A stretch of 32,000 nucleotides of DNA, taken from contig NZ_VMQO03000002.1 in assembly GCF_009805595.3 (NCBI RefSeq), forward strand, positions 31,039-63,038. Direction: 5' to 3'. The notes beneath the pieces are model-generated. The model did not search any database, was not told where the DNA came from, and saw nothing but the letters and a program-made list of their open reading frames with translations. Every line of letters begins with the position of its first letter. Within the stretch, counting starts at the first letter, position 1. The position numbers and the translations under genes are program-made. Origin of the DNA: Candidatus Tremblayella phenacoccinincola (GTDB taxonomy: Bacteria; Pseudomonadota; Gammaproteobacteria; Burkholderiales; Burkholderiaceae). This document shows, piece by piece, positions 1 through 28,307 of this stretch.

Positions 1-460
1 GCTTGGTTCAAACCCGGGTGGGTGGTCAGAATACGTCTTAGATAAAATAGGAAAACAAGGTTCAATCATAGCCTGTGATATTCTACCTATGAATAAACTA
101 AAAGGAACATATTTTATACAAGGTAACTGCTTTGCTAAAAATACTCTAGAAATGCTATACCTAAAAACAAAAGGTTCCAAAGTTAATGTTATATTATCAG
201 ATATGGCTCCAGCTATTACGGGCATCTCTTCTATTGATATTCCTAACTCTATAGAACTTATAAAGCTATCTCTAAAAATATGTTTAGCTATTCTAAAACC
301 AGGAGGTAGTCTTCTAGTAAAAGCTTTTCAAGGAGAAAGGTTTGCTAGTCTATATAATAAGCTAAGAACTATATTTAATAAGGTTAAGCTATGTAAACCA
401 AAGGCTTCTCATTATTATTCAAGAGAGGTTTATGTTGTAGCTAAAGGACTAGCTGTATAG
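1..460 (+). CDS. rlmE: 23S rRNA U2552 2'-O-methyltransferase RlmE (FtsJ), 5' end outside window
   Basis: The frame of ORF 89..460 stays open back to position 2. Upstream translation is LGSNPGGWSEYVLDKIGKQGSIIACDILPM; downstream motifs are SDMAP, KPGGSLLVKAFQG and SREVYVVAKG. All are colinear with E. coli RlmE as I recall it. Confidence 0.9.
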   Translation, partial: LGSNPGGWSEYVLDKIGKQGSIIACDILPMNKLKGTYFIQGNCFAKNTLEMLYLKTKGSKVNVILSDMAPAITGISSIDIPNSIELIKLSLKICLAILKPGGSLLVKAFQGERFASLYNKLRTIFNKVKLCKPKASHYYSREVYVVAKGLAV

Positions 461-468: not shown

Positions 469-535
469 ATACATTCTTTATTGTACTAAGGAACTGTTGT
501 TAGAGACTCTAGAGGGAGAAGTACTTCTAGCATAT

Positions 536-618
536 ACCGAGGTGGCGGAATAGGTAGTCGCGTTACTTTGAGGTGGTAATGCTTTATAAGCATACGGGTT
601 CAAGCCCCGTCCTCGGTA
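536..618 (+). tRNA. leuU: tRNA-Leu(GAG), class II, no encoded CCA
   Basis: Hand-folded cloverleaf. Acceptor ACCGAGG/CCTCGGT. D arm GCGG-AATAGGTAG-TCGC. Anticodon arm TTACT-TTGAGGT-GGTAA, anticodon GAG at 570-572 with U33 and G37. Long variable arm. T arm ACGGG-TTCAAGC-CCCGT. Discriminator A618. The layout closely matches E. coli leuU. Confidence 0.9.
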
Positions 619-646
619 TTATATAATAAACATAATACACATCTAA

Positions 647-721
647 AGCGGAGTGGAGCAGTTTTGGTAGCTCATCGGGCTCATAACCCGAAGGTCGTTG
701 GTTCAACTCCAACCTCCGCAA
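647..721 (+). tRNA. metY: Initiator tRNA-fMet(CAU), no encoded CCA
   Basis: Almost colinear with E. coli tRNA-fMet. A1 x A72 mismatch at the acceptor end and an A11:T24 pair. Anticodon arm TCGGG-CTCATAA-CCCGA has three consecutive G:C pairs (initiator signature). Anticodon CAT at 682-684. T arm GTTGG-TTCAACT-CCAAC. Confidence 0.9.
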
Positions 722-975
722 CTACAGCTAACTTCCCTTCCTAGCTAGGAGCTCTTGGTTTATTAGGAGAAGGTAGGAGAGGAGAGAGTTAACAGCTATA
801 GCTATTAAAGAGCTTCTCTCTCCCCTCTCTTATATATACTTCTACTTCTAACTAACCTTCTCCTCTTCTCTCCTTTCCCTTTCCTTATTCTTATCCACCT
901 TTCTCCTCTCCTTTCTCCCCCCAGGCTTCCCCCTCAACACATCCAAACATTCCTCTCCTTTCATACCGCTAACTA
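722..975. repeat. C/T-rich spacer repeat module A (GA/CT hairpin, AAAGAGCT, TATATATAC, CTAACTAAC, long polypyrimidine tract)
   Basis: GA arm 775-788 pairs with CT arm 816-830. The loop holds the palindrome AGCTATAGCT (794-803). AAAGAGCT is at 807-814, TATATATAC at 831-839 and CTAACTAAC at 848-856. Positions 841-960 are 54 C and 2 G out of 120 nt by hand count. CCCCCCAG is at 917-924 and CAACACATC at 935-943. The same anchors occur in spacers B and C. Confidence 0.75.
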
Positions 976-1042
976 TAGTTCCAATAGCTACAGCAGCTAT
1001 AATAGATTCTAGAGACAGTATGTATGGTAGTTTAACACATAT

Positions 1043-1053
1043 TAGGTTTATAG
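1043..1053 (+). repeat. Spacer motif TAGGTTTATAG, copy 2
   Basis: Exact 11-mer also present at 458-468. The flanking ACATATTAG...GTTTAT resembles 1181-1202. Confidence 0.6.
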
Positions 1054-1188
1054 TTCTAGAAGGCTAGGTATTTAGAACGCAATAAGCCTTTTGTCTTTAT
1101 TACTGAACATATAGAAAGTAACCAACCTTTTGTTTCTATTGGATCTGTATCTTTTGAGGCTATATAGCTATGGTTTAAGGACATATTA

Positions 1189-1200
1189 GCTTTAGGTTTA
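1189..1200 (+). repeat. Spacer motif GCTTTAGGTTTA, copy 1
   Basis: Exact 12-mer repeated at 4789-4800. A 10/12 copy, GCTTTAGGTT, lies at 7498-7507. Confidence 0.6.
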
Positions 1201-1239
1201 TTTAGCATATAATATAATAACTATTAACTAAACTGCACT

Positions 1240-1244
1240 AAGGA
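1240..1244 (+). promoter_or_regulatory. Possible Shine-Dalgarno (AAGGA) for pnp
   Basis: AAGGA lies 7 nt upstream of the TTG start at 1252. Confidence 0.4.
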
Positions 1245-1251
1245 TATTATA

Positions 1252-3366
1252 TTGTTAAACCCAACAAAACATAGCTTTAAATATGGTAAACATACTGTAA
1301 CTATCGAAACCGGTGTAATAGCTAGACAGGCAGATACTTCAGCATTAGTTAATATGAACGAAACAATCGTTTTAGTAACTGCTGTATATTCTAAACAAAT
1401 AAAGCAACCTCAGGCTCTCTTTCCTTTAACTGTGAACTATCAAGAGCGAACATATGCAGCTGGTCGTATTCCAAGTGGTTTTTATAGAAGAGAAGGACGT
1501 CCTAGTGAATCTGAAATACTAATATCTCGCTTAATAGATAGACCTATTCGTCCTTTATTTCCAGATAGCTTCCTAAATGAAGTTCAAATATTTGCTACAG
1601 TATTATCTTTAAACCCTCAAGTTACTACTGATATAGTATCTTTAATAGGTGTGTCAGTAGTTCTTAGCTTATCAGAACTTCCATTTAATGGACCATTTGG
1701 AGTTGCAAGAGTTTGCTATGTTAATGACAAATATCTATTAAGTTCTGATATTACTGGCCAAACAGCAAGCAGCTTAGACTTAATAGTTGTTGGTAGTTCT
1801 AATTCAATACTTATGGTCGAATCTCAAACAAAGCTTTTAAATGAACAACAAGTACTAGAGGCTATTCTATTTGGTTACAAAGAACAGCAAAAAGTAGTTA
1901 ATAATATTAACGAACTAACTAAAAGACCATGTAATAAAAGCTGTATTCATAAAAACTATAGTTCTAATATAGAATACATATTCCTAAAAGCTAAAGTAAC
2001 AAAACTAGCAGAACCTCGCATATTTGAAGCTTATCAAAATACAAACAAGAAGGAACGCTTTTCTTCAATAGAACTAATTAAGCTTGATATCTTAAATAGT
2101 ATAACTGACTCTAGAATACCTAGTATAATTCTTAGCTTAGAAAGGAATATTATGAGTAGCTATCTCTTAAAAAAAGGAATACGTATTGACGGTCGTAATA
2201 AAAAAGCTATTCGTAATTTAAACATTCGTATTGGCTTTTTACCTAGGACGCATGGATCTGCTTTATTTACTAGAGGAGAGACTCAAGCTTTAGTTACCGT
2301 TACTTTAGGGAATCAACGAAATGCTCAAAATGTAGACGAACTAAAAGGCGAACGCATAGATCGATTTCTTTTTCATTATAACTTTCCTCCGTTTTGTGTT
2401 GGAGAAGTTGGCATAATTGGTAGTCCAAAACGACGTGAGGTTGGTCATGGTTGGTTGGCAAAAAGGAGCTTACTACCTATTATACCTGAAGACAACATAT
2501 TTCCATATACAGTTAGAATTGTATCAGAAATAACTGAGTCTAATGGGTCTTCTTCTATGGCTTCAGTATGCGGAGCATCCTTAGCTTTAATGGACGCAGG
2601 GGTTCCTATATGTTTTCCAATAGCTGGTATTTCTATAGGTCTAATAAAAGAAACCAATAACTATTTATTACTCTCCGATATTATAGGTGATGAAGACCAT
2701 TTAGGAGATATGGACTTAAAAGCTTCAGGTACAAAGGCTGGTATGACTGCTATTCAAATGGATATAAAAATACAAGAGCCTGTATATAAAACCATTATAG
2801 ACCTAGCCTTAAAACAAGCTAGATCTTCTATATATTTTATATTAGACATAATGAACAAATCTATTAGCTCTTCTAGAAAAACTATAGGTAAATATGCTCC
2901 AAAGTTATACACAATCAATATAAGTCCTGATAAAATTAAAAGTGTTGTTGGAAAAGGAGGTTCAATAATAAAGTCTTTAATAGAAGAAACTAATACTAAT
3001 ATAGATATTTCAGATGCTGGCATGATTACTATATACTCTTCTAATGATAATATGGCGAACATTGCCTTAAATAAAATAAAAGAAATTACTTCTGATATCA
3101 AAATAGGAAACACCTACTCAAGTAAAGTTATTCGTATTGTCGAGTTCGGAGTTTATGTTATATATTGTGGTTATAAAGAAGGTTTAGTTCATATTTCACA
3201 TATAGCTAATAGATATATATCTAAGGTTTCTGATCATTTAACCATAGGCCAAGAAGTACTAGTTAAAGTTCTAGACATAGATCGTTTTGGCAAAGTAAAG
3301 CTAAGCATAAAAGAAGCAAGTAACCCTGCAATAAGTAACATTTCTAATAAGCTTAAGCCTAAATGA
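1252..3366 (+). CDS. pnp: Polyribonucleotide nucleotidyltransferase (PNPase), TTG start
   Basis: 704-aa ORF. The N-terminus MLNPTKHSFKYGKHTVTIETG and the motif LTVNYQERTYAAGRIPSGFYRREGRPSE are colinear with E. coli PNPase. Two RNase PH-like halves are followed by KH (VVGKGGSIIKSLIEETN) and S1 (VEFGVYV...GLVHISHIA) regions. E. coli pnp also uses a UUG start. Confidence 0.95.
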   Translation: MLNPTKHSFKYGKHTVTIETGVIARQADTSALVNMNETIVLVTAVYSKQIKQPQALFPLTVNYQERTYAAGRIPSGFYRREGRPSESEILISRLIDRPIRPLFPDSFLNEVQIFATVLSLNPQVTTDIVSLIGVSVVLSLSELPFNGPFGVARVCYVNDKYLLSSDITGQTASSLDLIVVGSSNSILMVESQTKLLNEQQVLEAILFGYKEQQKVVNNINELTKRPCNKSCIHKNYSSNIEYIFLKAKVTKLAEPRIFEAYQNTNKKERFSSIELIKLDILNSITDSRIPSIILSLERNIMSSYLLKKGIRIDGRNKKAIRNLNIRIGFLPRTHGSALFTRGETQALVTVTLGNQRNAQNVDELKGERIDRFLFHYNFPPFCVGEVGIIGSPKRREVGHGWLAKRSLLPIIPEDNIFPYTVRIVSEITESNGSSSMASVCGASLALMDAGVPICFPIAGISIGLIKETNNYLLLSDIIGDEDHLGDMDLKASGTKAGMTAIQMDIKIQEPVYKTIIDLALKQARSSIYFILDIMNKSISSSRKTIGKYAPKLYTINISPDKIKSVVGKGGSIIKSLIEETNTNIDISDAGMITIYSSNDNMANIALNKIKEITSDIKIGNTYSSKVIRIVEFGVYVIYCGYKEGLVHISHIANRYISKVSDHLTIGQEVLVKVLDIDRFGKVKLSIKEASNPAISNISNKLKPK

Positions 3367-3371: not shown

Positions 3372-3501
3372 CAATAGGGGTTTCCTCAGAGTCTACCGAA
3401 GTGGCGAAATGGGTAAACGCAGTTAACTCAAAGCTAACCACCTTGTAGGTTTATCGGTTCAAATCCGATCTTCGGTAGTTCTTAACATACACCCCCTATT
3501 G
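3372..3501. repeat. 9-bp perfect inverted repeat bracketing tRNA-Leu(CAA)
   Basis: CAATAGGGG (3372-3380) is the exact reverse complement of CCCCTATTG (3493-3501). The arms lie 14 nt upstream of the tRNA 5' end and 15 nt downstream of its 3' end. Confidence 0.7.
3395..3477 (+). tRNA. tRNA-Leu(CAA), class II, no encoded CCA
   Basis: Acceptor ACCGAAG/CTTCGGT. D arm GCGA-AATGGGTAA-ACGC. Anticodon arm GTTAA-CTCAAAG-CTAAC, anticodon CAA at 3429-3431, with an A31 x C39 mismatch. Long variable arm. T arm ATCGG-TTCAAAT-CCGAT. Discriminator A3477. Confidence 0.85.
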
Positions 3502-3564: not shown

Positions 3565-4146
3565 ATGAAATATAACATACTTCCTAAAAGCTACAATAAA
3601 GTTCATATCATTGGTGGAAAGCTTAAAAAAGCTAAACTAAATATAAGCAATGACTACAACTTAAGACCTACTTCTAATAGAGTTAGAAAAGCTATTTTTA
3701 GTTGGTTAGATCCCTTAGCAAAAGGTTATTATTGTTTAGACTGCTTTGCTGGAAGTGGTGTTTTAGGAATAGAAGCTATCTCAAGATATTCGTTAAATGT
3801 TACATTCTTGGAAATAAACAATAACTTCTTCAATAGTTTGATAAAAAACATAAATAGGCTAAAGCTAAATAATATAAGCTTAGTTAATATAAATGCTTTA
3901 GAATGGTTAAATAATATTAACAAACCTAAACCTTTTGATCTAGTTTTCATTGATCCTCCATTTTTCAGAGGAATGATAGCTAAAACCATAAACCTACTAG
4001 AAAGCCTTAATTACTTATCTCATAAGTCTATAATATACATAGAGTCTGAAATAGGTCAATCAAACTATAAAGTTCCCAAAAGCTGGTTAATATACAAAGC
4101 TAAAGACTCAAATAATCTATCATATAAACTGTATATAAGAAGCTAA
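3565..4146 (+). CDS. rsmD: 16S rRNA m2G966 methyltransferase RsmD
   Basis: 193 aa. The motifs LRPTSNRVRKAIFSWL, CLDCFAGSGVLGIEAISRY, VFIDPPFFRGMIAKTINLLE and IIYIESE are colinear with E. coli RsmD as I recall it. Confidence 0.85.
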   Translation: MKYNILPKSYNKVHIIGGKLKKAKLNISNDYNLRPTSNRVRKAIFSWLDPLAKGYYCLDCFAGSGVLGIEAISRYSLNVTFLEINNNFFNSLIKNINRLKLNNISLVNINALEWLNNINKPKPFDLVFIDPPFFRGMIAKTINLLESLNYLSHKSIIYIESEIGQSNYKVPKSWLIYKAKDSNNLSYKLYIRS

Positions 4147-4173: not shown

Positions 4174-4686
4174 CTACATTAAACAGCTAGTCTTATTCAA
4201 TATTATATTATAGGGTTTTTTATTAACGTTAATTATCTTATTAAGCACCTTAAGATACAGCTTATTTCTTTCTTTTATTACAGAATCTAATATCTTATAT
4301 AGGCTTATCCTAATAACTAATGTTAAAGGTCTTTGTTTAGCTACTACCCTTTTAGATTGTTCTTTAATACCTATCTTAACCCATAAGACAATATTAGAAT
4401 CTAATAGGCTCTTACATATATCTATATGGACAACAGATCCACCTCCAGTAGCTAATATAATGTTAGTTTTTATTAGCATAGTTCCAATTAGGCTTTCTTC
4501 TTTTATTCTAAATGATAGTTCTCCCTCTAAATAATAAGTTAAGTCAATAGATGCTTTATATTTAGCTTCTACTTTTATATCTGAATCAATATAAAACAGG
4601 TTTAGATGTCTAGCTAAGAAGTTACCTATCGTAGTTTTTCCAGAACCCATTAAACCTACTAAAGCTATGCTTATTATTTCTTTCAT
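4174..4686 (-). CDS. aroK: Shikimate kinase
   Basis: 170 aa. Contains the P-loop LVGLMGSGKTTIGNFLA, the DSD motif (YIDSDIKVE) and ILATGGGSV, the typical AroK layout. Confidence 0.85.
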   Translation of the reverse strand: MKEIISIALVGLMGSGKTTIGNFLARHLNLFYIDSDIKVEAKYKASIDLTYYLEGELSFRIKEESLIGTMLIKTNIILATGGGSVVHIDICKSLLDSNIVLWVKIGIKEQSKRVVAKQRPLTLVIRISLYKILDSVIKERNKLYLKVLNKIINVNKKPYNIILNKTSCLM

Positions 4687-4788: not shown

Positions 4789-4823
4789 GCTTTAGGTTTA
4801 GGTGAAGAGGAGAGGGAGAGTTA
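4789..4823. repeat. GCTTTAGGTTTA copy 2 followed by an inverted-orientation GA tract abutting the tsaB stop
   Basis: The 12-mer at 4789-4800 equals 1189-1200. GGTGAAGAGGAGAGGGAGAG (4801-4820) is the purine-strand version of the C/T modules. GAGAGTTA also occurs at 784-791. Confidence 0.6.
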
Positions 4824-5549
4824 GGGCCCTTTGTTCTTTGAGGTTAAAATATAACTAATACAATATTCCTTCCTATAGATATCAAATACGTATTTTGGAG
4901 AAACTTGCTCAGATGATAGCTTTTCACCTTTGATAGCTTTATGAATACCTATTGGTAACATACTTTTAGCTGTTAATAATATGGGCTTTTTTATAGTTAT
5001 AGTTCTTAGTTCAAGGTTATCATCCAAATAAAACAATAAGTCAATATTACTAACTATTACATATTCTTTATATTGTTCTAGTTCTATAGATAGTTTCTTA
5101 AAGATGAGTCTAAGTCTATTTGGGTTAGTTCTTCTAAACCAGGTTATTAAACCAATATTGGGTTTATGGTAGTTTGTTAGATATGCTTCTTCATTAGCTT
5201 TTATAACTAATAGTATTTTGGGTTTAACAGAGAACCAGGGTTGAACAACAGCTTCTAATGTAGATATGTTAACTAAGGGTAGGTTTGTATAGATAGATAA
5301 GCCTTGAGATAAAGATATTCCTATCCGTATGCCAGTGTAGCTACCATAATTATTACTAAAAGAAAGGTATTTAATATCAGTTAATGAAAGGCCTACTTCT
5401 AACAAAGCGCTATCTATAATAGGTATAGCTAAATGAGGTTGTTTATATGGGGCTTTTGATAGGTATTCACTAATTATAACATTATTAATGGATAATGCGA
5501 CAGAACAGAATATATTAGTTGTGTTAATAGCTAATAGACGTATATGCAA
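4821..5549 (-). CDS. tsaB: tRNA t6A37 biosynthesis protein TsaB (YeaZ)
   Basis: 242 aa. The N-terminal half LAINTT...CSVAL...GLSLTDIKYLSFSNNYGSYTGIRIGISLSQGLS matches the TsaB motif of E. coli (SLTDI...GPGSFTGVRIGIGIAQGLA). Confidence 0.8.
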   Translation of the reverse strand: MHIRLLAINTTNIFCSVALSINNVIISEYLSKAPYKQPHLAIPIIDSALLEVGLSLTDIKYLSFSNNYGSYTGIRIGISLSQGLSIYTNLPLVNISTLEAVVQPWFSVKPKILLVIKANEEAYLTNYHKPNIGLITWFRRTNPNRLRLIFKKLSIELEQYKEYVIVSNIDLLFYLDDNLELRTITIKKPILLTAKSMLPIGIHKAIKGEKLSSEQVSPKYVFDIYRKEYCISYILTSKNKGP

Positions 5550-5635
5550 GGGAGAAGAACCGTAAATACAGTTAAGTTAGTAGTTGGTTCTTGGTTCTGC
5601 TAATACTTTAGTATATGGTTTAGGTTAGACATAAG

Positions 5636-5880
5636 CTTTCCCCCCAGTTAAGACCAACACATCATAACACAGATTCAAAGAGCTATCCTCTCCTTCCCCC
5701 ATATATACCTACCGCATCTGTCTCATACTCTGGTTTTAATCCTTCAACAGCTTATTGATTAACCGGACAACCAGTAGGTCTTTCCCCCTTTCTAGTTCAT
5801 ATTATTAACACTTCCTCCTTCTCCTTAAACACTAACTAACCCCCTCCCCCCCCCTTCCTTCCTTTCCTTTAGTCTCAACC
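5636..5880. repeat. C/T-rich spacer repeat module B (overlaps the rpsU 3' end)
   Basis: CCCCCCAG at 5640-5647, CAACACATC at 5655-5663, AAAGAGCT at 5677-5684, ATATATAC at 5701-5708 and CTAACTAAC at 5832-5840. The C5-T-C9 run is at 5840-5854 and is followed by a CT tract. The order and spacing of AAAGAGCT to ATATATAC (24 nt) match module A (25 nt). Confidence 0.75.
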
Positions 5881-6059
5881 ACCCTCCTGAAATACTTCTT
5901 TGCTGATGATGCTTTCTTTCTTTTCCGTTCAGAGGTTGGCTTTTCATAAAATAACCTAGAACGCACTTCACTTAGTAAACCGCTACGCTCAACCATCCTC
6001 TTGAACCGACGTATGGCTATTTCAAATGGTTCGGCTTCTTTAATAAAAACAATACACAT
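5832..6059 (-). CDS. rpsU: 30S ribosomal protein S21 with a low-complexity C-terminal tail
   Basis: 75 aa. [41 protein letters not shown] is the conserved S21 core. The last ~12 aa ([12 protein letters not shown]) are read from the polypurine repeat. Confidence 0.9.
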
Positions 6060-6063
6060 AAAT

Positions 6064-6069
6064 TCTCCT
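6064..6069 (-). promoter_or_regulatory. Shine-Dalgarno AGGAGA for rpsU
   Basis: The minus strand reads AGGAGA-ATTT-ATG, with the ATG at 6059-6057. Confidence 0.5.
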
Positions 6070-6164
6070 ATACTATACGGGGGTTCATGTTGATATCTTT
6101 ATTTAAATACAGCTATTGGTAACAGGTAATTCTTGGTAAGATGAAGCTGTTGAACCGACAAATA

Positions 6165-6335
6165 AGACAAGAGAACCTCTCCTTCCTTCTCTTTAAGTTC
6201 TAACTAAGAACTCCCCCTCTCAACACTCTCTCCTCTCTCCCTTCCTTTTTCCTATCTCTATATATACCTCTCAAACGTACCTCCACATCATTCCTCCTCC
6301 TCCTCCCCCCCCCTACCCCCAAACGCTAGAAGACC
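6165..6335. repeat. C/T-rich spacer repeat module C
   Basis: CTAACTAAG at 6200-6208, CCCCCTCTCAACAC at 6213-6226, TATATATAC at 6259-6267, (CCT)4 at 6293-6304 and C9-TA-C5 at 6305-6320. Positions 6171-6330 are 71 C and 7 G out of 160 nt by hand count. Confidence 0.75.
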
Positions 6336-6397
6336 CATAATATCTTATCCTCACTACCATTCAAGCCTTCAAGTAACAACCTAAACCTAGGAACAAC

Positions 6398-7492
6398 TTA
6401 GGAACAACAAACCCCAACACTTCGACTTGTCAATAAAAGCTTTTCCAATGAAGAAGCGCTCATTGTTAATATTAATGCTTGTCCTAAGTCTTTAACTAAA
6501 ACAATGTTGCAGGAACGCACCAAAGAGTTAGTATTCTTCTTATCAACACTAATAGTTTTTAGGTAAGTCTCTACTTTCAACCCACTAGGCACAGATATAG
6601 GCAAACGACAGATGGATAACAAACGTATCAACCTACGCTGAACACTTAAATCAATTAACCCTAATCTAAAAGAGATGTCAGAAGCAATCACCATTCCACA
6701 GCTAACTGCCTCTCCATGTAACCACTTTTGATACGAAAGGTAAGATTCTATTGCATGTCCAAAAGTATGTCCAAAGTTTAAAACAGAACGCACACCAGCT
6801 TCTCGAGAATCTGTTGCTGTTACGTTTAACTTAAGCAAGCAAGCATGTTTAATCATGCTTATTACAACACTCAGTTTACGCTTCAATATCTTAAACATCA
6901 TTTTCTCAAGCCATTTAAAAAAGTCCCCATCAAGCGCAACACTTATCTTAATAATCTCTGACAAGCCTGAGTGCCATTCTCGTTGAGATAAAGAGCTTAG
7001 GTTCGAAATATCTAATATTACTCTGTCTGGCAAATGTATTGTCCCAACAAGGTTCTTTCCAAGTGCGGTGTTCAGTCCATTCTTTCCTCCAAAAGCTGAG
7101 TCTACTTGAGCTAAAAGAGTTGTTGGGATGTGTATTAATTTAACACTTCGCATATAGCAGGATGCAATAAACCCCGAAATGTCACCAACCACTCCACCTC
7201 CAAAAGAAGCAACCTTCGAGTCTCTGCTTAGTTCCTCATACAAAAGAACTTTGAGTATACCGATGAAAAACCTTAACCGCTTATAACGTTCTCCAATTCC
7301 AATAATGACCTTTGTTACTTTAAGACTATTCTTATTTCTTTTGAAGCTTCGTAATCGCTTGAGCCTACATAAACTAGCAACTGAACTATTAGTGATTAGC
7401 ACCAAGCTCTTGATGTTTTCATACGCTATAAAATCCCAATGCTTCTGAGACTGCATGCCTACATATCGAATGTTTCTTTTAGAAAAGCTCAT
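6398..7492 (-). CDS. aroB: 3-dehydroquinate synthase
   Basis: 364 aa. Contains FGGGVVGDISGFIA, IHIPTTLLAQVDSAFGGKNGLN, GKNLVGT and NFGHTFGHAIE...WLHGEAVSCGM, the AroB nucleotide- and metal-binding motifs. Confidence 0.9.
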   Translation of the reverse strand: MSFSKRNIRYVGMQSQKHWDFIAYENIKSLVLITNSSVASLCRLKRLRSFKRNKNSLKVTKVIIGIGERYKRLRFFIGILKVLLYEELSRDSKVASFGGGVVGDISGFIASCYMRSVKLIHIPTTLLAQVDSAFGGKNGLNTALGKNLVGTIHLPDRVILDISNLSSLSQREWHSGLSEIIKISVALDGDFFKWLEKMMFKILKRKLSVVISMIKHACLLKLNVTATDSREAGVRSVLNFGHTFGHAIESYLSYQKWLHGEAVSCGMVIASDISFRLGLIDLSVQRRLIRLLSICRLPISVPSGLKVETYLKTISVDKKNTNSLVRSCNIVLVKDLGQALILTMSASSLEKLLLTSRSVGVCCS

Positions 7493-7634: not shown

Positions 7635-7985
7635 TCATATTAGCTCCACCATACTAACAACTGCTTTATCACCTTTGCGTATGTGTGATTTAATAATGTG
7701 GCAGTAACCTCCCTTTGTTTGAAGATACCTGGGTCCTAGAATGTTAAAGACTTTCCTAACGCATCTTTCATTATTTAATTGTTCCATCACTGACCTAATG
7801 TTAGCTACTGTTTTCTTTTTGCCTTGAGTAATTATTGGTTCAATGATTTTCCTAAGGCTTTTTGCTTTTACAAAACAAGTGCATATACGTTCCCTTGTTA
7901 TAAGCGAATGTGCTAAGCTTTTAAACATCGATTGCCTATGGCTGCTCTTTCTATTCAGTTTTTTTAAGGATAGGTTGTGTTTCAT
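7635..7985 (-). CDS. rplQ: 50S ribosomal protein L17
   Basis: 116 aa. LNRKSSHRQSMFKSLAHSL...IIEPIIT...GGYCHIIK matches L17. The position after rpoA also fits. Confidence 0.9.
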   Translation of the reverse strand: MKHNLSLKKLNRKSSHRQSMFKSLAHSLITRERICTCFVKAKSLRKIIEPIITQGKKKTVANIRSVMEQLNNERCVRKVFNILGPRYLQTKGGYCHIIKSHIRKGDKAVVSMVELI

Positions 7986-7986
7986 C

Positions 7987-8658
7987 TTAGACAGAAAGTA
8001 ATGAGAACTGAGACTTTAGGATATGTATCGACTGTCTTAGTGCTTCTATCGGAGTAACTGAACCATTTGTTTCAATGTTTAGAATTAGTCTCTCAGAGTT
8101 ATAGTTAATGAGGCTGACAGAATAGCTAACGTTTTTAACTGGAGAATAAAAAGCATCCATAATTAGTTTACCATTATTCCAACATAACCCATTGCTTTTA
8201 GGAACATAGCCCCAGCCTTTCTGTATTTTAAGATATGCACTCAACCTTCCTGAGTCCAAATGGCATATTATATGGTTGGGGTTAACTATCTGACATCTGT
8301 AGTCCGTTTGAATATCTCTAGCATATACTGTTCCTGGATTTGTTTTACGTAGAGTGAGAGTTAGTGAAGCAATATGTACGTCCAACTTAAAAACAACATT
8401 CCTTATATTTAATGCTAACTGCAAAGAATCCTCTGCTATACCGGTAACTGAAGAGAATTCATTTGAAGAACCAACTATCTCAACTTCTGTAACAGCAGTC
8501 CCACATATTGAAGACAGCAAAGTACGTCTGAATGCGCAACCTAGAGTATCACCATAGCCTCTATCAAGAGCTTCTATTGAGAACTGAGACACATTACAGC
8601 CTCGTGCAACAATGGATCTTATTTGAGGTATCAGCATTCTAGCACCCATATAGTTCAA
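7987..8658 (-). CDS. rpoA: RNA polymerase alpha subunit, N-terminal domain only (no linker or alpha-CTD)
   Basis: 223 aa. GYGDTLGCAFRRTLLSSICGTAVTEVEI, GWGYVP, DAFYSPV and LNIETNGSVTPIEAL align with E. coli alpha residues ~1-233. The stop at 7987-7989 lies 1 nt from the rplQ ATG at 7985. Alternative starts are at 8649 and 8637. Confidence 0.85.
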   Translation of the reverse strand: MNYMGARMLIPQIRSIVARGCNVSQFSIEALDRGYGDTLGCAFRRTLLSSICGTAVTEVEIVGSSNEFSSVTGIAEDSLQLALNIRNVVFKLDVHIASLTLTLRKTNPGTVYARDIQTDYRCQIVNPNHIICHLDSGRLSAYLKIQKGWGYVPKSNGLCWNNGKLIMDAFYSPVKNVSYSVSLINYNSERLILNIETNGSVTPIEALRQSIHILKSQFSLLSV

Positions 8659-9253
8659 TGATTAGTCTTTCGTTTAGCTCTATTGGAATCTCTTTGCGTG
8701 TTGGCTTTTGTTTAAATGTTCCTTCCATTTTAAAATGATCTACATTCAACCAACATGGAACTTTCTGATGTATCCTGATGGCATTTGTTATTCTGAGTTG
8801 GGTTTTTGACTTATCGTGGATTTTAATTGAATCTGCTGGCTTAACTAAAAATGAAGGAATGTTCACTACTCTGTTGTTTACCAAGATGGACCTATGTGCT
8901 ATTAGTTGACGTGCTTCAGCTCTTGTTACACTAAAACCCATTCTGTACACAATATTGTCTAACCTAGCTTCTAAAGTCTGTAGTAGAAGGGTTCCTATTT
9001 CAGAATTAGCTTTATAAACACTTCGTAGATAAATTAGGAACTGCCTTTCTGTAATTCCATAGATTCGTTTAGCTTTTTGCTTTTCACGGAGTTGAATTCC
9101 ATAGTTGGATACCTTCAGTACATGCTTACTCTGTTGTCCTGGTTTAGTTCTAGACTTACACTTCTCCTCAAACGAACGAATACCACTTTTTAGGAAGAGG
9201 TCACAGCCTTCTCTTCTGGAAAGCTTTTGTTTAGGTCCTATATATTTAGACAT
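8639..9253 (-). CDS. rpsD: 30S ribosomal protein S4
   Basis: 204 aa. MSKYIGPKQKLSRREG, YGIQLREKQKAKRIYG and the S4 domain RLDNIVYRMGF...RQLIAHRSILVN. Confidence 0.93.
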   Translation of the reverse strand: MSKYIGPKQKLSRREGCDLFLKSGIRSFEEKCKSRTKPGQQSKHVLKVSNYGIQLREKQKAKRIYGITERQFLIYLRSVYKANSEIGTLLLQTLEARLDNIVYRMGFSVTRAEARQLIAHRSILVNNRVVNIPSFLVKPADSIKIHDKSKTQLRITNAIRIHQKVPCWLNVDHFKMEGTFKQKPTRKEIPIELNERLIIELYGC

Positions 9254-9282
9254 TGGTATCTTCCTCCTTTTTAGGTTGTATA

Positions 9283-9672
9283 TTAAACTCTTCTACGCTT
9301 TGAGGAACGGCAACCATTATGAGGTATGGACGTGATATCTTCTAAAGAGACTATCTTGATGCCTGAGCTGTATAATGCTCTAATGGCAGACTCTCTTCCA
9401 GTGCCTGGTCCGTTTACTTTTACTTTTAACGTTTTCATTCCATATCCTACAGCTATTTTACCTACGGTTTCAGCAGTTACCTGTGCGGAAAACGGAGTTG
9501 ACTTTTTGGATCCCTTAAAGCCATGTTTACCTGAAGCTGACCAAAACAGAACATCTCCATCTTTTGAAGTAATGGTTATGATAGTGTTGTTAAAGGTAGC
9601 ATGGATATACGCAATACCATCCAGGTTCTTACTGTTAGTGGAACTTAGCTGTTTATCTTTTGTTTTGTACAT
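9283..9672 (-). CDS. rpsK: 30S ribosomal protein S11
   Basis: 129 aa. [30 protein letters not shown]...[14 protein letters not shown]...[13 protein letters not shown]. Confidence 0.95.
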
Positions 9673-9686
9673 TGGCTGTAAATTCC

Positions 9687-10040
9687 TTAGTTGTTGGATG
9701 TTTTGCTTTTCTTTCTAGTCTTGGCATTTGTTCTCGTTCTTTGTCCTCTAGTTGGGAGCTTCTTCCTATGACGTATGCCTCTGTAGCAGCTAATGTTAAC
9801 TAGCCGCTTAATGTTTAAAGATACCAAACGTTTAAGATCACCTTCTACTAAAAGTTTGTTCACTGCTTCTTTTAGATCCACCAGCTTACTTTCGCTTAAG
9901 CTAGATATTTTGCAGTTAGGATCAATGCCAGTGACAGAACAGACTCTTCTCGATAAGCTTCTTCCAATACCATATATATATGTTAGGCCAACCTCTACAG
10001 ATTTGTTACTTGGTATGTTAACTCCAATAAGCCTAGCCAC
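9687..10040 (-). CDS. rpsM: 30S ribosomal protein S13
   Basis: 117 aa. [10 protein letters not shown]...[12 protein letters not shown]...[25 protein letters not shown]. Confidence 0.95.
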
Positions 10041-10157
10041 TTATCCCTGCCTCTGTTTATGCTTTGGGTTAGAACTACATAAAACCCTAACAACACCTTT
10101 TCTCCTTACCACTCTACACAGCTTACATATTACTTTAACTGATGCTGACACTTTCAT
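10041..10157 (-). CDS. rpmJ: 50S ribosomal protein L36 (absent from the supplied ORF track)
   Basis: Hand translation of the minus strand from the ATG at 10157 gives [38 protein letters not shown], then TAA at 10043-10041. This has the canonical L36 length, the C-x2-C ... C pattern and the NPKHKQRQG tail. It sits between infA and rpsM as expected. Confidence 0.9.
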
Positions 10158-10380
10158 GGTTAGGTTTAGTTCTGAATATTATTCTAGCTCTCAAAGGGTC
10201 ATACGGACTAACCTCAACAGTCACCATATCTCCAGGTAAGATCTTAATAAAATGTATCCTCATCTTTCCAGAAACGTAAGCTAAAACCACATGACTATTC
10301 TCCAACCTAACTCTGAAGTTGGTGTTTGAAAGGTTTTCGATCACTTCTCCGTGCATCTGAACATGTTTGGTTTTTGGCAT
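10135..10380 (-). CDS. infA: Translation initiation factor IF-1
   Basis: 81 aa. [53 protein letters not shown] matches IF-1. An ~11-aa C-terminal extension overlaps the rpmJ start by 23 nt. Confidence 0.92.
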
Positions 10381-10394
10381 ACACTCCTCATATA

Positions 10395-11543
10395 TTAACA
10401 GGTTTTAAAGAACTTGTTGAAACGTATGAAGTTAGCATAGAACTTCAATTGTTCTGTTAGAACCAAAGTTGTAGTTATTAGGGAAATAGACGTGAACTCA
10501 TTTAGTACAAGGACCTGCTTAGTAAATAAAGATAATAGTCTAATAACAGCACAACCTAAAACTATACACAGAGACTTAGTAATGATTAATTCCCTAAATA
10601 AATAGTTTAAGCGTTCCTTAGTATTTAACCCAGGTCTAAGACTATCAATAAACGTTGCACTTCTTTTCATGTATCTTGAAACATTGTTAGCCTTCACATC
10701 CCATCTTGTGAATATAACGCAAAAGTAGAACATTAAACTAACATGGAACAAGACCTCACAGACTGCCTCAATGGCTTTAATAAGTTCCTGAATGCACAAC
10801 CATTTATAAAGCGGAACACAAGCTACACATATCTTCTCAAAGAAGTTAACCTGAAGTGTTGACGTAACACAGGCTAGTGTTAAAGGAAAAAGGATTACTG
10901 GAACCAAACTAACAGAAAAGCAAGAGGAGTATATTCTGTCAGTCTTTTGACACCAGAATGTTAGTCTTTGTGATGCAAGCTCTGTTAAAACGCTAAAGTA
11001 AAACAGCAGGCTAAGGTCAGTTAGTAACAAGAAGCTAGGGGTTGGGGTCTTATCAATGGTTGTTTTCAGTATAAGCAACAACCTAGGAACATATGTTAAT
11101 AGCCTAAACAGAATAATTAAAGAAGCTCCACTACCAATGCCAGACATGCTTATATGCTCAGTCAACCACATTAGAACCATTGAACCAACCGTTAACAAAC
11201 CCACTAAACCCACAATGCCCACATATGGGTATCCAAATAAGGGTGTGAAATAATGCATACTAACTGCAGACTCAATAGATGTGAAAAGTAGTGTTAGTAG
11301 CCTAGCTAGCAATATATAAACGCTAGTTAGTAAAGAGGTTTCAGGGTTTGGCTTTAACAAGAATGTTAAAAAGACTTTCATAAGCAACTGCAAAGTCATT
11401 AACGGTGTTAACCTGATTGAGCTGGAATGTGCTTCTTTTGAAGGATAGCTTAGGGGAATGGGTATGTACATAATTAAGCGGCATATGAAAAGCATAACGA
11501 ATGTTTTAAGAAGACGTTTCATCGAGTAATTACTGTAGTTCAT
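10395..11543 (-). CDS. secY: Preprotein translocase SecY, shortened and highly divergent
   Basis: 382 aa and multi-pass hydrophobic. [27 protein letters not shown] resembles E. coli [44 protein letters not shown] resembles VPGIRPGEQTAKYI. The rplO-secY-infA position is syntenic. Confidence 0.75.
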
Positions 11544-11566
11544 GGGTCAGACACATGTAGATTCTC

Positions 11567-11914
11567 TTACCCTTGGCTATATATTCTGATGACTTTAGCA
11601 TTATTTCCAACCAAGTTAAAGCGGTTCAATAGTAGGTTTGAAACTGTGCCATAGAAAAGGTCTACTTTTAATACTTTGTTATAACTCAGACTAACAATAT
11701 GGTTTCTTTTATATCTTGTGAACCCAAGCTTTGGAACTCTTCTTTGAATTGGAGTTTGTCCGCCTTCAAAGCTTGGTTTAACTGCGCCTCCTGTTCTAGA
11801 TCTTTGACCCTTGTGGCCTCTACCTGATGTTTTCCCTTTCTTAGAACCCAACCCCCGACCAACCCTAACATTTTGTTTGTAACGTGCATTTGGGATTAGC
11901 TCATTTAGTTTCAT
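11567..11914 (-). CDS. rplO: 50S ribosomal protein L15 (short, 115 aa)
   Basis: MKLNELIP...[26 protein letters not shown]...[17 protein letters not shown]. Confidence 0.9.
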
Positions 11915-12116
11915 TTCCTTCGGGGTGTTTAATGTTGAGGGTTTTTATCAAATATGGAACTTTCTTAATCAAACCTACGGTGAATCTATTATTCGGTACA
12001 ACTCTGAAGGACCAAAGCTTACGCAGGCCTAAAGACCTAATGTATGTTCTATGCTTACTGCTAACTGAAATTAAGCTCCTTACTAACTGCACCAAGATCT
12101 TCTTATTTGTTGTCAT
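11901..12116 (-). CDS. rpmD: 50S ribosomal protein L30
   Basis: 71 aa. [28 protein letters not shown]...[10 protein letters not shown] matches L30. The position between rpsE and rplO also fits. Confidence 0.85.
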
Positions 12117-12601
12117 TGGCTTTTGAATGGAGAAATGCCTCTTTTACGAAATATGTAGTTCAAGCTGTTCAGACTCATTAGACCATCTAATACTGCTGGA
12201 ATAACATTGAACGGATTATTGGAGCCATGACATTTAGCGACCACATGGTTAATACCTGCTACACTAAACACAGACCTTACATGGTTACTCGCTATGATTC
12301 CTCTACCTTTTATTGAAGGAATTAATATAACAGTAGCAGCTCCGAATTTACCAACGGCTTTGTGAGCGATTGTATCTTCCAACATTGAAACTTTGATGAC
12401 ATTTCTTTTAGCATTGTTAACAGCTTTTTGTACGGCTAACGACGTTTCTCTTGACTTACCTTTACCAACACCAAGGTTACCACAACCGTCACCAACTACA
12501 ACTAAAGCTGTGAAGCTAAATATACGTCCGCCTTTCACTACCTTCGTAACTCTATTGATGGTAATTAACCTTTCAAACACCAGTTCTAATGGCTTATGCA
12601 T
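12113..12601 (-). CDS. rpsE: 30S ribosomal protein S5
   Basis: 162 aa. INRVTKVVKGGRIFSFTALVVVGDGCGNLGVGKGKSRE...AVQKA...GRGIIA. Confidence 0.95.
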   Translation of the reverse strand: MHKPLELVFERLITINRVTKVVKGGRIFSFTALVVVGDGCGNLGVGKGKSRETSLAVQKAVNNAKRNVIKVSMLEDTIAHKAVGKFGAATVILIPSIKGRGIIASNHVRSVFSVAGINHVVAKCHGSNNPFNVIPAVLDGLMSLNSLNYIFRKRGISPFKSQ

Positions 12602-12624
12602 TTTAGTATATGGGCTTATGGGTT

Positions 12625-12650
12625 TATGTATATTGTCTATGTATATTGTC
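12625..12650. repeat. Perfect 13-nt tandem duplication (TATGTATATTGTC x2)
   Basis: 12625-12637 equals 12638-12650. It lies in the 48-nt rplR-rpsE spacer, and its last base is part of the rplR stop codon. Confidence 0.85.
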
Positions 12651-13012
12651 TAAAACTGAAGACCATAGCACCTTGCTGACTCGGCCATGCTCTGTATTAA
12701 GCCATGGTATTGAAACCCAGATCTATCGAAAACAACCTTATTAACGCCAATGGAAACAGACTTTACAGCTATTAGTTTACCTATCAATGAGGCACCAAAC
12801 TTGTTCTTTCTTAGTCTGAAGTCTATATATTTGAATGTTGCTATAGTAGAAACACCAGTAACTATGTGATTACCTTCTTCTGAAATGACATACGCATAAA
12901 GATGTGTATTTGTTTTATATACTACCAACCTAAATAAGCCTATCTTTTTAAGCTTAGCTCTTGTTCTTTTAGCTTTTGTTTTTACTAGCCTCTTTACGTT
13001 TAAGTGCTTCAT
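12650..13012 (-). CDS. rplR: 50S ribosomal protein L18
   Basis: 120 aa. RLVVYKTNTHLYAYVISEEGNHIV...FDRSGFQYHGLIQSMAESARCYGLQF. Confidence 0.92.
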   Translation of the reverse strand: MKHLNVKRLVKTKAKRTRAKLKKIGLFRLVVYKTNTHLYAYVISEEGNHIVTGVSTIATFKYIDFRLRKNKFGASLIGKLIAVKSVSIGVNKVVFDRSGFQYHGLIQSMAESARCYGLQF

Positions 13013-13545
13013 TTCTTTTTTGTCCTCTCTTTCAAATTAACCGTCTCGTTAATAAACCTTATTCCTTTGCCTTTGTATGGTTCGATTGGATGGAAACTCT
13101 TTATTTCTGCTGAGACTTGTCCAACCAGCTGTTTATCCACTCCAAACACTTCCAGCTCATTAGGTGATATAAGATGAAGTTTAACGTTCCTATTCACACA
13201 ATAGATAATAGGATGGGAGAACCCTAACGACAAGGTTAACATATTATTTCTAATTGATGCTCGAAAGCCAACACCGTTTAAAACTAAGACCTTTCTAAAA
13301 CCTACGGTAACCCCTGAAACCATATTCGAGATTAGTGCTCGAACAGTTCCTTGTATTGCAGAGGTTCTTTGATTGCTAAAGAATGGAATTACCTTTAGTA
13401 TTGTTTGGTGGAGTTTAAGTTTTATTACCGAAGGCACATTTAATGTAAGAGATCCGAGTGGACCGGTTACCTGAAATGGTTCTCCAACATTCACTTGCAC
13501 ATTGTTTAATGGTATGGGTTTTCTACCGATACGTGAGCTTTTCAT
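13009..13545 (-). CDS. rplF: 50S ribosomal protein L6
   Basis: 178 aa. SRIGRKPIPL...GVGFRA...LGFSHPI...IEPYKGKGIRF. Confidence 0.93.
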   Translation of the reverse strand: MKSSRIGRKPIPLNNVQVNVGEPFQVTGPLGSLTLNVPSVIKLKLHQTILKVIPFFSNQRTSAIQGTVRALISNMVSGVTVGFRKVLVLNGVGFRASIRNNMLTLSLGFSHPIIYCVNRNVKLHLISPNELEVFGVDKQLVGQVSAEIKSFHPIEPYKGKGIRFINETVNLKERTKKK

Positions 13546-13549
13546 ATTG

Positions 13550-13945
13550 CTATGAAATATGACATATCACTTCTCCTCCTACATTAAGTTTCTTCGCCAG
13601 CTTATCAGTGATTGTACCTTTGGAAGTAGCGAGGATAGTTATTCCAAGGCCATTCAGATGAGGTTTTATATTGGTGTGTTTATTGTATATTCTCAGTCCG
13701 GGTTTGGATATTTGGTTTATGCAACTAATAACAGGCTTTTCGTCCATATATTTTAGCAATATGTTTAGCTTTAAATACCTCTTGCTAGAGCTACATACAA
13801 AGAATGTTTTTATGTAACCTTCTCTTTTTAAAACTCTTACTATGGAACATACGGCTTCTGAAAATGGAACAACCACCTGAACCTTCTTTGTAGCTTGTGC
13901 GTTCCTGATGTTCGTTAAAAGGCTTGCAACGGAATCTCTGTTCAT
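13550..13945 (-). CDS. rpsH: 30S ribosomal protein S8
   Basis: 131 aa. D.VASLLTNIRNAQ...VLKREGYI...ISKPGLRIY...GLGITILATSKG...GGEVICHI. Confidence 0.93.
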   Translation of the reverse strand: MNRDSVASLLTNIRNAQATKKVQVVVPFSEAVCSIVRVLKREGYIKTFFVCSSSKRYLKLNILLKYMDEKPVISCINQISKPGLRIYNKHTNIKPHLNGLGITILATSKGTITDKLAKKLNVGGEVICHIS

Positions 13946-13950
13946 CTTCG

Positions 13951-14256
13951 CTACCAGCTCGAAAGTGAAAGACCGGGTATTTCACCGTTAAAAGCAAGCT
14001 CTCTAATACACATTCGAGCAAGCCCAAAACACCTGAATACGCCTCTTGCTCGACCTGTAACAACACAACGGCTTCTTCTTCTTACATCGCTTGAGTCTCT
14101 TGGTAACTTATGGAGCTTTGTACGTATGCATTGCTTTTCGGATGTGCTCACTGTGGAGCACCTAAGTAGGTTTTTTAGCAAGTTACGATAAGCGAAATGT
14201 TTTACTCTCAGCGTAGCCCGTTTCTTTTCTCTTTCTATTACAGAAGCCTTAGCCAT
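13951..14256 (-). CDS. rpsN: 30S ribosomal protein S14 (long form)
   Basis: 101 aa. MAKASVIEREKKR...LPRDSS.VRRRSRC..TGRARGVFR.FGLARMCIRELAFNGEIPGL..SSW. Confidence 0.93.
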   Translation of the reverse strand: MAKASVIEREKKRATLRVKHFAYRNLLKNLLRCSTVSTSEKQCIRTKLHKLPRDSSDVRRRSRCVVTGRARGVFRCFGLARMCIRELAFNGEIPGLSLSSW

Positions 14257-14857
14257 GTTCGGTGTCCTTAAATGGAAAGTTAAAGAGGGTTAACAAGTGT
14301 TTTGCTCGTTCTTGGGATTTGGTATTCGTTACTATGCAGATGTTCATTCCGCTGTCTACGTTACCTTCTGCATAATTGAATTCAGGGAAAACCATCTGAT
14401 CTAATATACCTATGTTCAAGTTACCGAACGAATCGAAGGACTTAGTTGGTATTCCTCTAAAGTCTCTTAGTCTTGGTAATGAAATGTTAACTAGCTTATT
14501 TAAGAAGTCAAACATCCGTTCATTTCTGATAGTTACTTTTAGACCGACTGCGTCTCCTTGCTTAATCTTAAAGTTGGCAATTGCCTTAGAGGCCTTTGTA
14601 ACTACAGGCTTTTGTCCTGAGATATTGGCTAAGCTCTCTGCTAGCTTTTCTATCTTTATTCTTTCAGAAATAGCTTTACCAAGCCCCACAGTTAAAACAA
14701 CTTTAACTAACCTAGGCACTTCCATAAATGAGTTGGTTTTAAACCTCTTGGTCAATTCAGAAGTGGTTGAACCTAAGTAATGTGATAAATATCTGAAGTT
14801 GTAATTCATGTTCTTAGCGCTTAACTTCGATATGGTTTCTTGTTTTGGGTTTAGCAT
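14249..14857 (-). CDS. rplE: 50S ribosomal protein L5 with N-terminal extension (alternative start 14809)
   Basis: 202 aa. FMEVPRLVKVVLTVGLG...GQKPVVTKASKAIANFKIKQG..VGLKVT.R...DFRG matches L5. The start overlaps the rplN stop as TAATG. The canonical L5 N-terminus aligns from MNYNFRY, the internal ATG at 14809. Confidence 0.9.
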   Translation of the reverse strand: MLNPKQETISKLSAKNMNYNFRYLSHYLGSTTSELTKRFKTNSFMEVPRLVKVVLTVGLGKAISERIKIEKLAESLANISGQKPVVTKASKAIANFKIKQGDAVGLKVTIRNERMFDFLNKLVNISLPRLRDFRGIPTKSFDSFGNLNIGILDQMVFPEFNYAEGNVDSGMNICIVTNTKSQERAKHLLTLFNFPFKDTEHG

Positions 14858-15225
14858 TACAGAACCTCCTGTGCTAAAGAAATTACTTTAACAAAGCTCA
14901 AGTCTTTAAGTTCTCTTGCCACAGGCCCAAAGATTCTACTTCCGATAGGTTCATATTTGCAATTCAACAAGACAACAGAATTATCATCAAACCTAATAAT
15001 TGAACCATCAGCTCTATATAAACCCTTTTTCGTCCTAACAATCAGCGCACTATGGACTTCCCCTTTTTTAACCTTTCCCTTTGGAACTGCTTCTTTAATA
15101 CTTACTTTTATTATACATCCGATGTTAGCGTATCTTCGCTTTGAACCTCCCAACACTTTAATACAGGCTACCGCTTTAGCTCCTGAGTTATCAGTAACGT
15201 TTAATATAGACTCTGTTTGTATCAT
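14857..15225 (-). CDS. rplN: 50S ribosomal protein L14
   Basis: 122 aa. [17 protein letters not shown]...[38 protein letters not shown]. Confidence 0.96.
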
Positions 15226-15234
15226 ATTCTTGAA

Positions 15235-16725: not shown

Positions 16726-16731
16726 ATATCA

Positions 16732-17070: not shown

Positions 17071-17109
17071 TTGTTTTATTGGGGTTGGAGTTAAAGAACA
17101 TTGTTTCCG

Positions 17110-17412: not shown

Positions 17413-17413
17413 A

Positions 17414-19711: not shown

Positions 19712-19724
19712 AGGTTTGCCAAGG

Positions 19725-21236: not shown

Positions 21237-21255
21237 GTTTTTTAAAAGTTAAGGT

Positions 21256-23370: not shown

Positions 23371-23379
23371 CTAATATAG

Positions 23380-23847: not shown

Positions 23848-23863
23848 GTGGGTTTAGTTATGG

Positions 23864-24238: not shown

Positions 24239-24243
24239 ATTCG

Positions 24244-28305: not shown

Positions 28306-28307
28306 GG

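Follow-up and report, generated by a model that had tools for sequence, protein, structure and literature searches.

A probable boundary between gammaproteobacterial and betaproteobacterial DNA at the tsaB-rpsU spacer of a chimeric Candidatus Tremblaya phenacola genome

Gene content of the window

The window analysed here, a 32,000-nt stretch of contig NZ_VMQO03000002.1, holds genes of gammaproteobacterial (gamma) type at its left end and a betaproteobacterial (beta) ribosomal protein and RNA polymerase array over the rest of its length. The two blocks meet between tsaB and rpsU. The DNA of the window belongs to the chimeric genome of Candidatus Tremblaya phenacola. We suggest that the junction is very probably a genuine boundary between gamma and beta DNA in that genome, carried by a sister strain of strain PPER with a gene order like that of strain PSOL. 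A junction of this kind had been proposed from a tool-free reading of the raw sequence, hereafter the original prediction.

The features of the window were taken from an open reading frame listing, ARAGORN and Rfam tRNA scans and NCBIfam assignment (Table 1). Apart from the tRNAs, the Rfam search over the window gave no family. The array follows the order rplQ, rpoA, rpsD, rpsK, rpsM, rpmJ, infA, secY, the spc and S10 operon genes, tuf, fusA, rpsG, rpsL, rpoC and rpoB.

Table 1. Features of the window with coordinates, strand and supporting data. GC, guanine plus cytosine content; GC3, GC at third codon positions; LLR, codon-usage log-likelihood ratio (negative, left-block-like; positive, right-block-like).
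Feature	Coordinates	Strand	Description and support
rlmE, 3' part	2..460	+	Cut by the left window end; gamma-type block; NCBIfam RlmE, E = 1.5e-48
tRNA-Leu(GAG), counterpart of E. coli leuU	535..619	+	ARAGORN, Rfam; relative position as in E. coli
tRNA-Met(CAT), initiator type, counterpart of E. coli metY	647..722	+	ARAGORN, Rfam
Spacer inside the gamma block, 529 nt	723..1251	.	Four GA-/CT-rich low-complexity tracts (775-922)
pnp (polynucleotide phosphorylase)	1252..3366	+	Gamma-derived; homologue search; GC3 0.18
tRNA-Leu(CAA)	3394..3478	+	ARAGORN, Rfam
rsmD (16S rRNA m2G966 methyltransferase)	3565..4146	+	Gamma block; NCBIfam RsmD; GC3 0.24; LLR -9.9
aroK (shikimate kinase)	4174..4686	-	Probably gamma-derived, would replace the lost beta copy; NCBIfam AroK
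tsaB	4821..5549	-	Last gamma-type gene left of the boundary; NCBIfam TsaB, 84.8 bits (cutoff 69.3); GC3 0.21; LLR -11.1
Junction spacer, 282 nt	5550..5831	.	GC change-point 5640; PPER-conserved core 5590-5679; CT-rich tracts
rpsU (S21), 75 aa	5832..6059	-	First gene with right-block composition; NCBIfam S21; GC3 0.395; LLR +8.3
rpsU-aroB spacer, 338 nt	6060..6397	.	Three long homopyrimidine tracts
aroB (3-dehydroquinate synthase)	6398..7492	-	Beta-derived; homologue search; GC3 0.34; LLR +42
Beta-type array, unbroken	7635..31934	-	Synteny, codon usage

Identity of the organism

The polynucleotide phosphorylase (PNPase), AroB and S21 proteins of the window are each 100% identical to Candidatus Tremblaya phenacola entries at NCBI, the PNPase record being KAH0998233.1/WP_159128781.1. 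The strain is not PPER, which is ruled out by nucleotide identities of 76-85% and amino acid identities of 59-93% to the MKGN01 contigs; for PNPase the value is 79%. The original prediction had mentioned a beta/gamma collage genome described for T. phenacola PPER, leaving undecided whether the window belonged to that organism or to another case. It thus named the right species, of which the window represents a sister strain of PPER.

Strain PPER is described as a beta/gamma "collage" (Gil et al. 2018, ISME J 12:124, as summarised in PMC5664097 and PMC6463088). According to PMC5664097, the gamma genes of this strain number at least 80 and account for about 46% of its genome; they have a GC and codon signature of their own and an affinity to a Sodalis-allied clade. 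A second chimeric beta/gamma genome is that of PSOL, the symbiont of Phenacoccus solenopsis, with 221 kb and a GC content of 34.8% (Bai et al. 2024, PMC11014885). Its published gene order runs peg121 pnp (gamma), peg122 rsmD, peg123 aroK (gamma), peg124 tsaB (gamma), peg125 rpsU (beta) and peg126 aroB (beta). The gene order of the window is identical, and the switch from gamma to beta in PSOL falls between peg124 and peg125.

Compositional step at the tsaB-rpsU spacer

Along 1-kb windows, GC content stays at 0.28-0.33 between 1500 and 5000 and at 0.35-0.41 from 5500 on; for the blocks as wholes it is 0.310 (1252-5549) vs 0.382 (5832-32000). The maximum-likelihood single change-point is at 5640 (2-log-likelihood support 5390-5760; 2*dLL = 71) and thus falls either within the tsaB-rpsU spacer or at the 5' end of tsaB. 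The original prediction had placed the switch in ancestry in this spacer, and the change-point agrees with it.

It had also singled out synonymous sites as the place where the shift might vanish, and there the shift persists. The five left genes have GC3 values of 0.15-0.24 and the 35 right genes values of 0.26-0.43, two ranges that do not overlap (Mann-Whitney p = 3e-6); when the genes of each block are pooled, GC3 is 0.196 and 0.329, respectively. The codon-usage LLR was calculated from synonymous codons with leave-one-out. It is negative for five of five left genes and positive for 35 of 35 right genes, without exception, and reaches +38 for secY; for rpsU it is still +6.1 when only the first 61 codons are counted. 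Left-block genes on both strands are uniformly AT-rich, and strand is therefore not the cause. The boundary is visible as a compositional step because the gamma-derived genes keep a lower GC content and a distinct synonymous codon usage.

The size of the step had been overstated. The shift itself was correctly seen, but the 60-nt samples on which it was first read gave 0.18 for rsmD and 0.50 for rpoC and implied a difference of about 20 points. Whole-gene GC is 0.277 for rsmD, 0.275 for aroK, 0.296 for tsaB, 0.321 for pnp and 0.387 for rpoC, and the step really amounts to about 7-8 points.

Ancestry of the left block

Among the best 120 matches of PNPase, nearly all named sequences from outside T. 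phenacola belong to Sodalis, Moranella, Gullanella, Doolittlea and other Enterobacterales, at 55-58% identity, with no betaproteobacterium among these named ones. AroK scores 96 bits against AroK of E. coli and 32 bits against the beta AroK of T. phenacola strain PAVE. For TsaB, a PDB search gave 70-74 bits for the nearest YeaZ chains, which we take to be those of Salmonella, Vibrio and E. coli, and 40 bits for other chains, presumably from Pseudomonas; Ca. Providencia is among the few named nearest cluster representatives. The class assignments of pnp, aroK and tsaB come from these similarity searches rather than from trees. They agree with the published labels: aroK is called gamma in both PSOL and PPER, rsmD (PSOL peg122) stands in the published list of gamma markers, and tsaB is also a gamma marker in PSOL (PMC11014885, with supplementary tables). 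RlmE is 42.5% identical to that of E. coli, with a GC3 of 0.15-0.18 and an LLR of -8.7.

Gene order points the same way. In E. coli, one strand carries rlmE, ftsH, folP, glmM, secG, leuU, (yhbX, argG), metY, rimP, nusA, infB, rbfA, truB, rpsO and pnp, in that order. The window keeps rlmE, tRNA-Leu(GAG), tRNA-Met and pnp in the same order and orientation, with the intervening genes deleted, and so the synteny claimed in the original prediction agrees with the E. coli map. The two tRNAs are 78-82% identical to leuU and metY (69 of 88 and 64 of 78 positions, respectively), and the anticodon stem-loop of the tRNA-Met, GGGCTCATAACCC, is identical to that of metY. A search of the window spacers for relics of E. 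coli rpsO, truB, rbfA, infB, nusA, rimP, secG, glmM, folP and ftsH gave only chance-level matches (E > 0.09).

The protein motifs first quoted for RsmD and RlmE are all present in the window. The PNPase stretch is also present, but it is not the exact E. coli form it had been taken for: the window reads GRIPSGFY where E. coli has GRIPGSFF, and three positions of the quoted stretch differ. Taken together, the left 5.5 kb, from rlmE to tsaB, probably descends from a Sodalis-allied enterobacterial co-symbiont.

It should be noted that the TsaB frame of the window has 242 aa, begins with TTG and matches the TsaB model from its first position. TsaB of PPER is annotated with 196 aa (L001 3617-4207). 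The homologous frame continues upstream (tblastn to L001 4327), and hence the annotated start in PPER is probably too late.

Ancestry of the right block

AroB is 81% identical to AroB of PPER and 46% to that of PAVE, with Oxalobacteraceae and further Burkholderiales next, at 41-44%. Judged by their nearest relatives, pnp and aroB thus belong to different classes. The array is colinear with contig 19 of PPER and also with PAVE in the part of that genome that was compared (rplV to aroB). The genes infA and rpmJ follow secY in the window and in PAVE; E. coli has no infA there. In E. coli, tusB rather than rpoC lies upstream of rpsL and rpoBC is found elsewhere, so the E. coli gene map bears out the original prediction that rpoBC is not linked to the str operon in that species. 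The EF-Tu motifs that it had quoted are present in the window, and those quoted for E. coli match E. coli EF-Tu exactly.

Two peculiarities of the array recur in its relatives. RpoA (7987-8658, minus strand) has 223 aa and matches positions 20-226 of a 320-position model, so that the whole C-terminal domain is missing; RpoA has 223 aa in PAVE (L003 8366-9037), 220 aa in PPER (L002 8875-9537) and 329 aa in E. coli. At 14249-15225 (minus strand) rplN is directly followed by rplE without rplX (L24), as in PAVE and PPER; E. coli has rplX. The L5 protein carries an N-terminal extension of about 24 aa. The rpmJ gene (10041-10157, minus strand, 38 aa) shares 23 nt with the 3' end of infA, and does so in PPER as well. 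SecY (10395-11543, minus strand) is strongly degenerate, with a score of 76 bits where the curated cutoff lies at 253.6; it matches E. coli SecY over only 68 aa at 25% identity, and its 61% identity to PPER is the lowest in the array.

We also tried pairwise identity to E. coli vs PAVE as a class test for the ribosomal proteins. It is uninformative, PAVE being too divergent; RpsD, for example, is 53% identical to E. coli and 46% to PAVE. This probably explains the labels "gamma" and "unknown" in the published tables, in which rpsD and rpsC are "gamma" in PSOL, and "unknown" and "beta", respectively, in PPER (PMC11014885). Neither codon usage nor synteny in the window supports the "gamma" labels, which look like single-gene-tree noise. 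Both rpsD (8639-9253, LLR +18.8) and rpsC (16078-16725, LLR +16.5) have right-block codon usage and lie inside the array that is colinear with PAVE. From rpsU or aroB rightwards, the window would then be the ancestral betaproteobacterial Tremblaya ribosomal and RNA polymerase array.

The junction spacer and its counterpart in strain PPER

The core of the junction spacer is 82.6% identical to PPER over 92 bp. In the junction spacer, sigma-70-like sites are no commoner than in shuffled sequence and terminator-like sites are absent. Relics of PAVE aroK and hisGBH were sought in the window spacers and gave only matches at chance level (E > 0.09). The original prediction had described the spacer as built from a C/T repeat family, and this did not hold: the window has no alignable family and no long repeats. 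What it has are 14 homopurine or homopyrimidine tracts that contain G+C and measure 14-31 nt; 12 of them lie within spacers or at their edges, in about 5% of the sequence. The left block carries such tracts at 775-922 and 4804-4820, the junction at 5686-5870 and the right block at 6176-6314. One of them enters the 3' tail of rpsU, where the frame runs 15 codons into a homopyrimidine tract (5832-5876, minus strand) and gives the protein a low-complexity tail. S21 of PPER ends at 60 aa, and both S21 proteins are without the usual basic C-terminal third. The GC skew reaches -0.40 at 5501-6500.

The spacer element is single-copy within the window. We located its counterpart in PPER by a scan with a 24-nt spacer motif, which, run over the species-representative collection, gave hits in PPER only. 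PPER contig 22 carries pnp, rsmD, aroK and tsaB and ends in tsaB; contig 19 carries rpsU, aroB and the ribosomal array and ends in rpsU. The two overlap by 343 bp at 100% identity. This unit comprises the spacer together with roughly 40 nt from the 5' end of tsaB on one side and the final 36 nt of rpsU on the other, so that contig 22 holds the whole of tsaB with the rpsU tail and contig 19 the whole of rpsU with the tsaB head. As the unit holds both gene ends, the gamma/beta adjacency fits into a span that short reads can cover. The tsaB-rpsU adjacency therefore seems to predate the split of PPER and the window strain.

The same 343-bp unit, 100% identical, is found at six PPER contig ends, those of contigs 6, 9 and 22 on one side and 1, 14 and 19 on the other, and is therefore a three-copy repeat in PPER. 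The unit is flanked by lpd, trxB and aroQ on contig 6, by panB, alaS, groES and groEL on contig 9, by hisS, rluD, lysC and proS on contig 14, and by rpsU', leuC, leuD, leuB and asd on contig 1. Contigs 1 and 19 share 745 bp including the whole of rpsU, which is duplicated in front of leuC. The numbering of the PSOL genes suggests that the PPER contigs pair as 22-19, 6-1 (peg26 aroQ next to peg27 leuC) and 9-14 (peg178 groEL next to peg179 hisS). The PPER copies would accordingly lie at tsaB/rpsU-aroB, aroQ/rpsU'-leuC and groEL/hisS, and two of the three are at gamma/beta boundaries.

The start of PPER contig 6 (L004 1-141) matches, inverted and with 86% identity, window positions 1147-1285, which lie just upstream of pnp and include the first codons of the gene. 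The match is a hint that PPER has a further repeat or breakpoint at the 5' end of pnp.

We tentatively consider that the junction spacer, with its core at 5590-5679, may be a recombination substrate that moves blocks in this lineage rather than inert filler, although we hold this to be doubtful. If it were so, the identical copies in PPER would imply recent duplication or ongoing gene conversion.

Comparison with related symbionts

PPER has the same collage and the same local genes as the window, with the tsaB-rpsU adjacency kept in the 343-bp unit. It differs in that its junction spacer occurs in three identical copies and rpsU is duplicated, whereas the window has one copy.

The genome of strain PAVE (171 kb, CP003982) is non-chimeric (PMC6463088), and we found no gamma block in the 21 kb of it that were read. 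Its array is colinear with that of the window from rplV to rplQ and aroB and shares the 223-aa RpoA, the lack of rplX, and infA and rpmJ after secY. Unlike the window, PAVE has a beta aroK of its own in the rplQ-aroB interval and a beta his operon beyond aroB, and the identity of its proteins to those of the window is only 37-72%.

The same beta-gamma partnership, with complementary gene sets, is known from the nested symbioses of Pseudococcinae mealybugs, where Tremblaya princeps harbours Moranella or other Sodalis-allied symbionts. In those systems the two genomes reside in separate cells and on separate chromosomes, whereas in the window both ancestries are contiguous. The PNPases of Moranella, Gullanella and Doolittlea are among the nearest relatives of the PNPase of the window.

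Origin of the boundary and alternative explanations

We suggest the following scenario, which is taken from the literature. Two symbiont genomes would have become one molecule in an ancestor of PPER and the window strain, and recombination and deletion would then have shuffled blocks and removed redundant copies. Fusion, a retained gamma GC and codon signature and a non-redundant gene set are reported in PMC11014885, PMC5664097 and PMC6463088. In the course of this, the beta aroK, which in PAVE lies between rplQ and aroB, and the beta his operon would have been lost, and the gamma aroK would have survived 1.7 kb away. The window has a rplQ-aroB spacer of 142 nt (7493-7634) without a beta aroK, and its single aroK is the gamma copy at 4174-4686. 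Such complementary loss is expected within one genome. Both ancestries are contiguous in the window, in agreement with the 343-bp unit of PPER and the PSOL numbering.

Several points weigh against a genuine boundary in a PSOL-like strain. The join is known at the level of the assembled sequence of the source. The PPER assembly breaks at the homologous spacer, which is present there in three copies, and assemblers can err at such joins; according to PMC6463088, PPER stayed unassembled even with Nanopore reads and has several coexisting organisations that are favoured by repeats. The window matches strain PSOL in gene order, which is the only ground for that assignment. Many of the ribosomal proteins are as close to E. 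coli as to the fast-evolving PAVE, or closer. For the ribosomal proteins, EF-Tu and RpoBC, the references were symbionts and E. coli rather than free-living beta species. Because pairwise identity does not discriminate, most of the beta assignment of the array comes from synteny, shared derived characters, AroB and codon usage, not from trees. A last point concerns rpsU, whose beta ancestry we infer and for which similarity alone is ambiguous.

The junction may be real and the boundary lie one gene further to the right, with a gamma-derived rpsU and the switch in 6060-6397. The S21 search gave 39 homologues, of which the named ones come from non-enteric Gammaproteobacteria (Idiomarinaceae, Permianibacter) at 55-60% identity. 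The protein also shares the motif FYEKPT with E. coli S21, and it offers only about 60 informative residues. The motif on which the original prediction called S21 beta-like is present, but the affinity itself is weakly supported by the sequence. Against a gamma origin, GC3 and codon-usage LLR of rpsU resemble those of the right block, the change-point lies to its left, and identity to E. coli S21 is only 48%. The best-scoring relatives are 70-aa proteins ending in LPKKLY, which we take to be the betaproteobacterial form. The published pipelines call rpsU beta in both PSOL and PPER (PMC11014885, supplementary tables). We regard a gamma-derived rpsU as unlikely and place the switch in 5550-5831 with high confidence.

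The left block could also stem from piecemeal horizontal transfer, in which small gamma fragments were inserted one by one into a Tremblaya chromosome. In E. coli, none of the other left-block genes lies next to the stretch that survives as the rlmE-pnp relic; the left-block genes presumably belong to four separate regions on the E. coli map. As they are so scattered, the window alone does not separate a cut-down fused block from separate insertions. The relic itself spans 19 kb of the ancestral gamma chromosome, which fits deletion within a large block. Moreover, gamma genes reportedly account for some 45-46% of the genome in PPER and in PSOL and come from a coherent Sodalis-allied lineage, and whole machineries have one origin with almost no redundancy (PMC11014885, PMC5664097). 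Serial insertion is accordingly improbable.

An assembly artefact would require that Tremblaya and a Sodalis-like co-symbiont had been misjoined across a shared tsaB-rpsU spacer repeat. The occurrence of the identical 343-bp repeat at six PPER contig ends would make such a misjoin conceivable, and an exact-protein search with TsaB, AroK, AroB and PNPase found no other assembled contig. On the other hand, the independent PPER assembly has the 5' end of tsaB and the 3' end of rpsU in one unit, and the published PSOL assembly, a hybrid of long and short reads, has the same order (PMC11014885). A single chimeric genome is reported in PMC5664097 and PMC6463088. The style of the CT-/GA-rich tracts is common to the spacers of both blocks, and the aroK content is complementary. 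A misjoin is thus very improbable.

Finally, the step could reflect expression level or constraint on a right block made up mostly of highly expressed translation genes, with no difference in ancestry, but this explanation has practically no likelihood left, since the step is also seen at synonymous sites, in aroB and, as the original prediction had argued, in the poorly conserved secY (GC3 0.37), while the left genes are equally AT-rich on both strands, the nearest relatives of pnp and aroB are of different classes and the codon-usage LLR contradicts it as well.

Implications

The genuine gamma/beta boundary that we favour is already known. The chimeric genomes were published for PPER (2018) and PSOL (2024), and since the exact order of the window is given in the PSOL supplementary tables, the junction is in the literature, though no special attention is drawn to it. 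Such a junction can be found, and the organism correctly named, from raw sequence read without tools. Chimeric genomes of this kind muddle both taxonomy and the quality control of assemblies. The spacer at the junction corresponds to the three-copy repeat that fragments the PPER assembly, and joins at this place in any T. phenacola assembly merit confirmation at the level of reads.

If the spacer is indeed a recombination substrate, recombination between its copies could generate the coexisting genome isomers reported for PPER. Beta/gamma boundaries as active breakpoints would then go slightly beyond the published view that "many repeated sequences" favour alternative organisations. The fusion of two symbiont chromosomes from different proteobacterial classes is a bacterial counterpart of the genome fusions known from organelles.

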